Virus record (IMG/VR): IMGVR_UViG_3300025389_000010
Location: 128,001-192,000 of that record
Source of the DNA: a virus
Taxonomy: Duplodnaviria; Caudoviricetes
Length of the DNA: 64,000 nt
Strand: one strand, 5' to 3'
Position numbers and translations under genes: made by a program. Shown here in pieces: positions 1-47,159 of the stretch. The stretch's first letter is position 1. Each line of letters opens with the position of its first letter. A model generated the notes under the pieces. That model searched no databases. It had not been told where the DNA came from and saw only the letters and a program-made list of their open reading frames with translations.

Positions 1-1227
1 GCCAATAATTGGAATTTTATATAATCTTTTTGCTAAACCTGTAAGAATATCAAGTTTTTTAACGGTTCTTTCTTCCGGTGTTCCCCCACCAGCTTGATAA
101 TCAAGTATTCCGTTTAATACAGACACGCCAATCGATAATGGTCCGGTTATAATTGCAGCACCGGGAATAAGTTCCATAAAATTAAGAAGACCTGCAACCA
201 AATTTAAAGTTCCAGATACAGGATCATTGTTTTCAAAATCATTAATCGCAAAACCTAAACTTATAATACCACCAATAACAGGTATACTTTTCATTGCAGC
301 TGCGCCTACACCTTTAAATAGACTACCTGCTATTTTTGGTAATATTTTACCAAATAGTGTTTTTCCTACAATTTTTTCTTCACCGGCTACTGTAAATGTT
401 TTAAATAATCCTTCACTAAAAATTCCTTTAAGTGCTACTTCTAAAAAATCACCAATTGATGTTAAAACTTTTCCTGATAATTCACCAATTAACCCAACAC
501 CGGATAATTTTAATCCACCAAGTGTGAAAAATTTACCAATGTTTTCAACTATACCGTTAAATTTATCAAGAAAATCCAATTTAACACCTAACGTTTGTTC
601 CAACCAAGGTTTTATTTTATCTTTCCAAAATAAACCAATTAATAAAGATGCTGCTCCACCAACTAAAAGAAGTTTACCCAAAGTATCAAATATACCACCT
701 TTATTACTCGTGTTTTCAGATATGGCATCAAGAGTATCTGAAGAATGTTTAAGATATTTATCAAGTCTTTTGTTTGCTTCTTCTTGTCTATTGGTCGTTT
801 GCAGAATAATATCTTTTAAAAACACCGCTGATTTTGGAGAAAAATCTATAAAAGTTGTTTTTGGACCAAAGTTTTTTTGTTCTGCAATTTTATCATCAGT
901 TGAAAGATTTTTAGTTTTCTCTGGTAAAATACTACTAATAATAGTTTTTGCTATATCTACCGGTTTGTCTTTACCGCTTTCTAATGATTTTTTAATTTGT
1001 CCAGTTGTACGATCTAAACCTTGGCTTATAGCTTCTGCATATTTTTTAAATTGATCGCCTTGGTTTTTATTATAATCTTTTGATTGAGAAATACTACGTT
1101 TAAAATAATCTTTAAGGTTATTATCTAATTCCTTAAAATAACCCTTAAAATTATCATAAAATGATTTTGTCTCAGCATGTTGAGAATTTAATGTCTCTAA
1201 TGCTGCTTCAAAAGTTTGATCTGTCAT
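1..1227 (-). CDS. Tape-measure/baseplate-hub (gp29-like) protein, N-terminal part; runs off left edge
   Basis: My translation: ATG at 1227 (MTDQTFEAALETLNSQHAE...), open to position 1 (...TGLAKRLYKIPIIG). Gly/Ala/Ile-rich amphipathic segments; preceded by TAAGTA; directly downstream of hub genes. Not in the ORF track because it has no stop in the window. Confidence 0.6.
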   Translation of the reverse strand, partial: MTDQTFEAALETLNSQHAETKSFYDNFKGYFKELDNNLKDYFKRSISQSKDYNKNQGDQFKKYAEAISQGLDRTTGQIKKSLESGKDKPVDIAKTIISSILPEKTKNLSTDDKIAEQKNFGPKTTFIDFSPKSAVFLKDIILQTTNRQEEANKRLDKYLKHSSDTLDAISENTSNKGGIFDTLGKLLLVGGAASLLIGLFWKDKIKPWLEQTLGVKLDFLDKFNGIVENIGKFFTLGGLKLSGVGLIGELSGKVLTSIGDFLEVALKGIFSEGLFKTFTVAGEEKIVGKTLFGKILPKIAGSLFKGVGAAAMKSIPVIGGIISLGFAINDFENNDPVSGTLNLVAGLLNFMELIPGAAIITGPLSIGVSVLNGILDYQAGGGTPEERTVKKLDILTGLAKRLYKIPIIG

Positions 1228-25496: not shown

Positions 25497-25570
25497 TGGT
25501 AGGAGATAACGGTAACGCTCCGCTGAATCCTGAATGTAAATCAGGTGTTTTACTTTTAAACTAATCTCCC
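25497..25570 (-). tRNA. trnV: tRNA-Val(TAC)
   Basis: Cloverleaf; anticodon arm CCTGA-TTTACAT-TCAGG; CCA encoded; non-canonical T-loop AGCGTTA. Confidence 0.85.
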
Positions 25571-27547: not shown

Positions 27548-27570
27548 TACTTATATATTAAAAAACCCAA

Positions 27571-27641
27571 CTACCCCGCATGGACTCGAACCATGAATAA
27601 CAGTGCCAAAAACTGTGGTGTTACCATTACACTACAGGGTA
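27571..27641 (-). tRNA. trnQ: tRNA-Gln(TTG), CCA not encoded
   Basis: ACAGT-TTTTGGC-ACTGT anticodon arm; GGTTCGAGTCC T-arm. Confidence 0.9.
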
Positions 27642-27647
27642 ATATGA

Positions 27648-29029: not shown

Positions 29030-29189
29030 TGTTAATTCTTTTTATTTCTAATAACATTTCCTTTGCTCTAGTCTTTGAGATTCTTATCTCATTGTTCCCA
29101 ACTCTGTCCGCAATAGGAATAAGGGTTTTGAGAATACCCTCTAAGTCTGAAACTATATTATCGTATGTCATGGTTGATATATTAAACAC
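28962..29189 (-). CDS. Hypothetical protein
   Basis: ORF track; likely start MTYDNIV. Confidence 0.4.
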   Translation of the reverse strand: MFNISTMTYDNIVSDLEGILKTLIPIADRVGNNEIRISKTRAKEMLLEIKRINNEKSKAKSKHIRREPAWLDRPE

Positions 29190-29229
29190 TTTTGTTTTTT
29201 ATGCAAGAAAATTGTGCGAGCTTTATTTT

Positions 29230-29426
29230 TATCTCTTTGGCCTTTCCTCGCTCATGCCCTTCAGATGGGTGCGACCACAACATATTTTTGGATGGCGGGG
29301 CGCAACTCCCACATATGTTGTTCCTGTACAGCCTTGCAAGGACTGCCCCGGAATTTCCAGAAGCATTGTACAGATCGGGCATTCACCGATACCAACTTGT
29401 CTGCATTTTGACAAGCAGATACATCC
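29230..29426 (-). ncRNA. Unassigned ~200-nt multi-stem structured RNA
   Basis: GC-rich island with nested helices TATCT/AGATA, CTTGTC/GACAAG, TTGGT/GCCAA, ATCGG/CCGAT, CTGTACA/TGTACAG, CAACATAT/ATATGTTG, TCGC/GCGA; own promoter. Confidence 0.7.
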
Positions 29427-29433
29427 TTAATAT

Positions 29434-29462
29434 AATTTAACACCGATACGTTCTTGTGTCAA
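29434..29462 (-). promoter_or_regulatory. Sigma70-type promoter for the structured RNA
   Basis: TTGACA (29462-29457), 17 nt spacer, TAAATT (29439-29434); predicted +1 at about 29427. Confidence 0.6.
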
Positions 29463-29470
29463 ATAAAAAA

Positions 29471-29546
29471 TGGCACGTTAGGAGGGACTCGAACCCACAA
29501 CCAACAGTTTTGGAGACTGCGACTCTACCAATTGAGCTACTAACGT
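29471..29546 (-). tRNA. trnW: tRNA-Trp(CCA)
   Basis: GCAGT-CTCCAAA-ACTGT arm; CCA end. Confidence 0.92.
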
Positions 29547-29547
29547 G

Positions 29548-29622
29548 TGGCTGAAGTGGTAGGACTCGAACCTACAACCAATCCCTTAACAGGGGATCGC
29601 TCGACCATTGAGCTACACTTCA
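29548..29622 (-). tRNA. trnN: tRNA-Asn(GTT)
   Basis: ATCCC-CTGTTAA-GGGAT arm; CCA end. Confidence 0.92.
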
Positions 29623-29628
29623 ATAAAT

Positions 29629-29704
29629 TGGTCGTGATGGAGAGACTCGAACTCTCGATTCCTTGCTCCCAAAGCAAGTGCCATAGCCGCTAGGCGACAT
29701 CACG
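29629..29704 (-). tRNA. trnP: tRNA-Pro(TGG)
   Basis: CTTGC-TTTGGGA-GCAAG arm; CCA end. Confidence 0.92.
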
Positions 29705-46707: not shown

Positions 46708-47159
46708 TGGTGGAGGCGAGGGGAGTCGAACCCCTGTGTTTAATGTTGAGAAGTATATAATCTTCACATGTTTGGACAAACTTCGTACTTTGGTTGTCTA
46801 AAGGTAACGAGGTGTTGTCAACCTATCCATGTTTAGAGACCTACCTGTATGTGTGATTAACGACCACATACCACCGCTTGCACTTATTTTCGAGTGTCAC
46901 AAGTCCCACTCAACCTATTATGATTTACCAAAGGGATTAATAGGATTACCTTTGGTCCTTATGCTGCGAGGAGGGTCTCTTCCTCGTAACCACAGAGGAA
47001 CTCTGCGGCGTTGTTGAGGATATAGTCTGCTTCAGCTAAGATAGCATCAGTATTATCTTCTGCGTTTATTTGTTTCGATCAGCTTTTAAGGTAGCCAACT
47101 GATCAACTACCACATGCATACATAACATCTAACAATTAAGTCGAAGCCAGTACGCCCCC
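46708..47159 (-). ncRNA. ssrA: tmRNA (452 nt) with a 34-codon tag reading frame at 47063-46959
   Basis: 5' GGGGGCG / 3' CGCCTCC-A-CCA acceptor with G3:U70; TTCGAC 5' motif; GGTTCGACTCC T-arm; resume ATAAAC-GCA; tag ends LLAA*. Confidence 0.95.

Follow-up and report, generated by a model that had tools for sequence, protein, structure and literature searches.

The window analysed in this study is a stretch of 64,000 nucleotides, corresponding to bases 128001-192000 of a 225,756-bp IMG/VR record of an uncultured, T4-like jumbo phage. Its major capsid protein is of the T4 type (Pfam Gp23, E = 1.3e-90), and the closest cultured relatives by capsid are cyanophage-like myoviruses with an identity of merely 33-35%. 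The genome carries 16 tRNA genes according to ARAGORN, and a tmRNA, which lies at window 46708-47159 on the minus strand (Rfam, 93 bits). One tRNA at 25500-25570, also on the minus strand, was detected by Rfam and missed by ARAGORN.

On its minus strand the window contains a cassette with its own putative promoter, a conserved RNA core and a variable 3' tail (Table 1), which lies 31 nt 3' of tRNA-Trp where a tRNA cluster ends. The cassette forms a GC-rich island in AT-rich DNA, as had been noticed in the sequence-only reading of the window: the GC content is 0.48 in 29200-29399 and peaks at 0.54 over 150 nt, compared with 0.32 for the genome.

Table 1. Features of the RNA cassette and its neighbours. 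Positions are those of the window, except for the structural elements, which are numbered from the first base of the core.
Feature	Position	Strand	Remarks
tRNA-Pro, tRNA-Asn, tRNA-Trp	29471..29704	(-)	ARAGORN and Rfam; immediately upstream of the RNA cassette
Sigma-70-type promoter of the RNA	29434..29462	(-)	-35 TTGACA 29462-29457, 17-nt spacer, -10 TAAATT 29439-29434
Perfect consensus promoter TTGACA-17-TATAAT	29408..29436	(+)	12/12 in consensus scan
Conserved 139-nt RNA core (AAGGAUG...CCAUCC)	29290..29428	(-)	core position p = window 29429-p
Variable 3' tail, about 75-77 nt	29213..29289	(-)	holds the ATATGTTG strand, the TCGC/GCGA arm, GAGGAAAGGCCAAAGAGATA and GCTCGCACA
69-aa ORF	29171-28962	(-)	downstream neighbour of the RNA in the window
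P1 GGAUG/CAUCC	core 3-7/135-139	(-)	predicted; pairs first and last conserved bases
P2 UAUC/GGUA	core 8-11/36-39	(-)	predicted; encloses the 5' hairpin
5' hairpin	core 13-19/28-34	(-)	predicted; 7 bp, 8-nt loop
Arm 1	core 40-43/51-54	(-)	predicted; 7-nt loop
Arm 2	core 55-62/99-106	(-)	predicted; 7-8-bp stem, sub-hairpins 64-85 and 86-98
Single-stranded stretch	core 107-116	(-)	predicted; ten bases
3' hairpin GUGGG/CCC(G/A)C	core 117-121/130-134	(-)	predicted; 5 bp, abuts the 3' strand of P1

The element is known in three variants of one small lineage, i.e. the window itself, the L094 type and L189, and the other copies were reached only via neighbouring proteins. L094, an ENA contig, was found from the 257-aa upstream protein, and the same sequence type occurs in three further samples (L201-L203). 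L189, a JGI contig, was found from the 159-aa gene downstream of the RNA in L094, and a scan of JGI metagenomes with a 19-mer again returned only the L189 contig. A 30-kb ENA contig and a 5.3-kb JGI contig probably carry further copies, and the phage lineage is present in JGI samples 3300010157 and 3300010885 and in ENA ERZ27229607, ERZ18633221 and ERZ27313202. BLAST of the element against 50,697 GenBank phages gave no match, and the same was true of its 6-kb neighbourhood. In 22 capsid-related IMG/VR records (3 complete genomes, 19 partial) the element was absent by BLAST and by a covariance model of the window RNA (R1), the sole chance matches being inside a gene that resembles ribonucleotide reductase by translation. 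When IMG/VR was scanned with exact and gapped patterns, four of the five patterns gave nothing and the remaining one, a 15-mer, gave 89 chance matches; a 22-mer scan of the GTDB genomes gave no match. The RNA is also missing at the syntenic loci of more distant relatives (L187, L190, L191, L207-L213). The element is a present/absent cassette restricted to one small lineage, and its absence from the three complete and 19 partial genomes and from the syntenic loci indicates that it is dispensable for such a phage.

The sequence-only reading had placed a minus-strand TTGACA-17-TAAATT upstream of the RNA, and the promoter was found there with a TG (29442-29441) closing the minus-strand spacer, that is, with an extended -10 element; in a consensus scan it matched 10 of 12 positions, TG present. 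Judged from the position of the promoter, the RNA would start at about A29428/A29427, two bases ahead of P1. All three variants agree in the -35 element and the ATT before it, in the GGTG to which the TG belongs, and in the -10 element. In contrast, 8 of the 17 spacer bases differ between L189 and the window (spacer versus rest of the cassette, Fisher p = 4e-6). Hexamers that are kept around a spacer that has diverged are the signature of a working promoter, and for the same reason a recent transfer of the whole cassette cannot explain the identity of the core.

Across the genome, TTGACA-17-TAnnnT was observed 26 times with 4.2 expected, an enrichment of about six-fold. Nineteen of these 26 are on the minus strand, grouped at both ends of the record, which likely constitute the early region. 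By its motifs, the promoter of the RNA would be of the early sigma-70 type and the RNA's own. No terminator was found after the RNA, and its 3' end would therefore come from processing.

Alignment of the three variants (A5) revealed three zones, corresponding to promoter, core and tail. The core differs between the window and L189 at 6 of 139 positions (95.7% identity) and between the window and L094 at 3 of 139 (97.8%), compared with an identity of 67-88% for flanking genes and DNA. Between the window and L189 the 69-aa gene is 76.7% identical, tRNA-Gln 69.9% and other flanking DNA 67-69%, and between the window and L201 the values are 71% for tRNA-Pro and 67% for tRNA-Asn. The comparisons of the core with the 69-aa gene and with tRNA-Gln each gave a Fisher p below 1e-6. 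The core, which is sharp-edged and more constrained than the phage's own tRNAs, thus appears to be under strong purifying selection at nearly every base. Taken together, the kept promoter hexamers, the kept core and the diverged spacer point to selection on the transcribed RNA, and the conservation pattern argues for the functional non-coding RNA that had been proposed from the window alone.

The tail behaves differently from the core. The window and the L094 type both have it, with one deletion and two substitutions between them, and it is absent in L189, a natural tail-less variant that marks the minimal unit.

When the 139-nt core was folded alone, the same minimum-energy structure, a five-helix junction, was obtained for all three variants (Table 1), with z-scores from -1.5 (window) to -3.1 (L189). 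Four of the seven variable positions are unpaired, and the other three are one-sided G-U/A-U or U-G/U-A switches. Among the 46 predicted pairs none is broken and none is changed on both sides, in three variants that are 96-98% alike, and by the usual covariation standard the modeled fold remains unproven. A permutation test gave P = 0.005 for zero broken pairs, an optimistic value in that it was computed on the very sequences that had yielded the fold. The RNA is on the minus strand, as had been proposed: its fold contains six G-U pairs, and the three wobble switches fit that strand only, since on the plus strand each would become an A-C mismatch.

The structure differs from the one originally drawn, a junction of about 200 nt. 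All seven helices named in the sequence-only reading are present at their places, and its inner arms, namely the 5' hairpin, ATCGG/CCGAT and CTGTACA/TGTACAG with two sub-hairpins, recur in the core folds of all three variants. The outer architecture, on the other hand, did not hold. The two outer stems, TATCT/AGATA and TTGGT/GCCAA, have their AGATA and GCCAA strands in the tail, so that L189 is without these strands, and the core is closed by GGAUG/CAUCC instead. The TCGC/GCGA arm, also located in the tail, is absent from L189, as is the 3' strand of CAACATAT/ATATGTTG, a stem that is therefore not kept. Nor did the fold of about 200 nt exceed chance: its constrained energy was -56.4 kcal/mol and the free minimum -59.2, with a mean of -55.8 for 216-nt shuffles, and the full-length stretch scored z = -0.7 (minus strand) and z = -1.2 (plus strand). 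RNAalifold preferred a different interior.

Two UGCA loops had been suggested to allow kissing-loop folding or oligomerisation. Both are found in the window, but L189 has AAAACGCA in place of the AAAAUGCA loop and the second UGCA makes up a tetraloop, and a kissing-loop dimer via UGCA was rejected on this basis. Repeated AAUGC and GGA motifs were considered as protein-binding sites and discarded, as two AAUGC and one GGA are altered in L189.

Rfam (release 15, 4227 models) was searched twice. With gathering thresholds, 29200-29470 matched no family, whereas with E<=10 the region 29100-29560 gave only chance microRNA, snoRNA and sroH matches of 12-16 bits, in line with the claim that the RNA belongs to no known family. 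ARAGORN and RF00005 detected the three flanking tRNAs and nothing in 29212-29440, even at E<=10. An RNase P-like GAGGAAAG, a group I intron, a hammerhead, FMN-like words and a T-box were inspected by eye and rejected, since the order of motifs does not fit and Rfam gave none of them. A search for an antisense target in the phage genome showed no complementarity of 14 nt or more.

The comparison suggested from the start was with RNA C (species 1, rnaC) and RNA D (species 2, rnaD) of phage T4, the functions of which are still unknown (PMC3014915, PMC9697503) and which are classed as late RNAs (PMC9697503). Neither rnaC nor rnaD has an Rfam family of its own, and covariance models were built from rnaC of T4, RB69, EcS1 and UFV01 (R2) and from rnaD of T4 and RB69 (R3). 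R2 recovered T4 rnaC with 165 bits and R3 recovered T4 rnaD with 142 bits; R2 found nothing at the locus in the window, L094 and L189 (E<=10), and R3 found nothing in the same three sequences. Conversely, R1 gave no match in T4, RB69, EcS1 and UFV01, including at rnaC, and BLAST showed no similarity between the window RNA and T4 rnaC or rnaD. The comparison therefore stands for position, at the distal end of the tRNA cluster and on the same strand, and falls for family membership.

Like the window RNA, T4 RNA C and D are encoded on the tRNA strand where the tRNA cluster of a T4-type phage ends; they are small and stable, as the window RNA would be. RNA C measures 139 nt, the length of the conserved core, has like the predicted fold of the core a closed multi-helix shape with a 3' hairpin beside the closing stem, and is likewise nearly invariant (97.8% between T4 and RB69). 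Two differences should be noted: RNA C has a canonical T arm (GGTTCGAATCC), which the window RNA lacks, and the T4 RNAs are classed as late whereas the window RNA has its own early-type sigma-70 promoter. In rnaC of EcS1 and UFV01 the T arm and the closing stem are changed on both strands with complementarity kept (L097 4909-5172, which is T4; L204-L206). The position of T4 rnaD is occupied by tRNA-Phe in EcS1 and apparently by a tRNA-like sequence in UFV01.

GOLLD and ROOL are structured phage and prophage RNAs without known function that often lie beside tRNA islands, and Rfam models of both exist and have been downloaded in an earlier study (bioRxiv 10.1101/2024.12.08.627333). They are 580-800 nt or longer, compared with 139-216 nt here, and gave no match in the Rfam scan. 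Their kissing-loop assemblies are echoed by the oligomerisation idea of the sequence-only reading, but one of the proposed loops is not conserved here. Bacterial Y RNAs (YrlA) and other tRNA-like mimics are about 100-200 nt long and possess a domain with tRNA-mimicking helices, and some are phage-encoded. The window RNA has no Rfam match among them and its closing stem is only 5 bp; the assignment as Y RNA was rejected, the phage having neither a Ro60/TROVE gene nor a gene for a CCA-adding enzyme.

The layout of the cassette has a counterpart in the same lineage. L094 carries a tRNA-Tyr cassette that is organized in the same way as the RNA cassette, with a T-run, TTGACA, 16-17 nt, TAAnnT, about 10 nt and a structured GC-rich RNA. 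In relatives (L094 1352-1481; L187 121-247) this tRNA-Tyr cassette with its own promoter comes after tRNA-Trp and is followed by either the RNA or the next ORF. In the window phage tRNA-Tyr is missing altogether (junction at window 29463-29470), and the gene was probably lost via recombination between the repeated promoter heads (CCATTTTTA-TTGACA). The tRNA genes of the window (29548-29704, 27570-27642) are moreover a mosaic with respect to L201, with tRNA-Trp 98.7% and tRNA-Gln 100% identical next to the diverged tRNA-Pro (71%) and tRNA-Asn (67%), which suggests that single tRNA genes have been replaced among close relatives. The position of the RNA, the tRNA-Tyr-like layout of its cassette and the enrichment of its promoter type point to a gene for a stable small RNA of the T4 RNA C/D kind.

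The main rival explanation, unlikely although several observations speak for it, is that the RNA is a cis-acting 5' leader of the downstream gene, either a riboswitch-like aptamer or a protein-binding operator, with the core as sensor and the 3' part as expression platform. A conserved 5' domain followed by a variable 3' part is the usual riboswitch pattern, and two alternative folds of the full-length RNA lie within about 3 kcal/mol of one another. That no terminator follows would also fit, as would the short distance to the ATG of the 159-aa gene, which lies 11 nt after the core in L189 and 6 nt after the end of the conserved block in L094. However, the gene that would be controlled is not constant, being the 69-aa ORF in the window and a 159-aa DUF6998-like gene in L094 and L189 that is absent from the window phage. 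The 69-aa gene has a promoter-like TTGCAT/TAATAT of its own between the RNA and its ATG, as in the RNA-less L187, and the same genes occur in at least 10 related contigs without such a leader. Furthermore, the complementarity between tail and core did not exceed that of shuffled tails (p = 0.09 and 0.27), and riboswitch-like switching between core and tail was rejected on this ground; no riboswitch family matched, and the layout of the cassette is that of a tRNA gene.

The 159-aa DUF6998-like gene (L094 1746-2225; L189-L191, L207-L213) has more than 440 homologues, and in the fetched contigs it follows directly after the tRNA genes of T4-like phages. It was considered as a clue to the function of the RNA and set aside, since it has no assigned function itself.

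It is improbable that the conserved stretch acts at the DNA level without any folded-RNA function, either as a two-way promoter or RNA polymerase sink, or as selfish DNA spread by recombination or homing, a spread that would account for the high identity. A DNA-level role would account for the consensus promoter on the plus strand, which lies inside the element and is the sole perfect TTGACA-17-TATAAT in the 226-kb genome, with 0.23 expected. This promoter stands back to back with that of the RNA, overlapping its -10 element and the 5' hairpin, and aims antisense into tRNA-Trp, tRNA-Asn and tRNA-Pro, with no plus-strand gene after it. The promoter is kept in L189, its -10 element reads TACAAT in L094, and the consensus may represent a true two-way promoter or an accident of conservation at the RNA level. 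Mobility would in turn be compatible with the mosaic nature of the region among relatives and with the presence or absence of the cassette. On the other hand, the conservation extends 139 nt past the promoters, the substitutions respect the minus-strand pairs, and the diverged spacer between conserved hexamers argues against a recent block transfer. There are no terminal repeats, nhmmer found no second copy within the phage's own genome, and no homing endonuclease domain was found next to the element.

We regard it as very unlikely that the stretch encodes a small protein. All six reading frames are interrupted in at least one variant, by a 1-nt deletion at window 29277 in L094 and by new stops in L189. 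The best candidate is a 66-aa ORF that is open in the window, with an ATG at 29382 (MPDLYNASGNSGAVLARLYRNNICGSC...), and a product of 31-66 aa would be in keeping with the fact that three of the five substitutions in the first 31 codons are synonymous and two non-synonymous. Beyond these 31 codons, however, the C-terminus is different in every variant, L094 being frameshifted and L189 having a stop directly behind codon 31. The 46 nt that precede the ATG match the frame in conservation and contain no ribosome-binding site at a usable distance, and third codon positions are almost invariant while neighbouring genes differ at 23-33% of their bases. A phmmer search of the 66-aa ORF against 1.84 billion representative proteins revealed no small-protein family, the single weak match being a repeat-rich 1185-aa protein, and no gene had been called in the stretch in L094, L189 and L201-L203.

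Hardly more credible is that the stretch is what is left of one or several tRNA genes in decay: the element does lie inside a tRNA cluster with a tRNA-like GC content, shares its promoter layout with the tRNA-Tyr cassette, and has a 3' hairpin (GUGGG/CCCnC) and closing strand that resemble the adjacent tRNA-Trp in its T arm and acceptor strand, but a pseudogene would drift, whereas this RNA exceeds the real tRNAs of these phages in conservation, is recognized neither by RF00005 at E<=10 nor by ARAGORN, and has loops without T-loop or anticodon-loop signatures.

In our judgement the element is real and non-coding, and very probably functional. Our preferred interpretation, to which we assign a probability of roughly 0.55, is that it is a gene for a small, stable, structured and trans-acting non-coding RNA on the minus strand, with its own promoter and a protein-binding role, belonging to the same general class as T4 RNA C and D. 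Transcription would begin at the early-type sigma-70 promoter, two bases before the closing helix GGAUG/CAUCC, and the functional unit would be the 139-nt core, the 3' tail of about 75 nt being optional. The predicted closing helix P1 would enclose four helices in an order like that of class-II tRNA arms, a resemblance only, as the loops are not tRNA-like. The folded RNA would presumably act in trans, like T4 RNA C and D, most likely on a protein of the tRNA, translation or RNA-processing machinery of the host or the phage, and a role as tRNA-like decoy may be envisaged.

More speculatively, and rather doubtfully, the RNA could be the founding member of a new class of phage RNAs from tRNA islands, which would mimic the layout of a tRNA with a long variable arm and serve as decoy or inhibitor of a tRNA-targeting defence nuclease of the host or of a tRNA-processing enzyme. 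The invariance of the core would then stem from a tight RNA-protein interface, and the antisense promoter would be part of the control.

The RNA is in no known family, yet it is of a known kind, a small phage RNA in a tRNA island. It is narrowly distributed, with three variants in one uncultured lineage, which restricts the evidence as well as the reach of the finding. Phage tRNA islands repeatedly hold structured RNAs whose role is unresolved decades on, as with T4 RNA C and D, GOLLD and ROOL, and the element described here is a compact, promoter-defined example. Should it turn out to regulate tRNA-related host functions or to act on them as a decoy, the known counter-defences of phages would gain an RNA-based tool; otherwise, it would be one more orphan phage small RNA.
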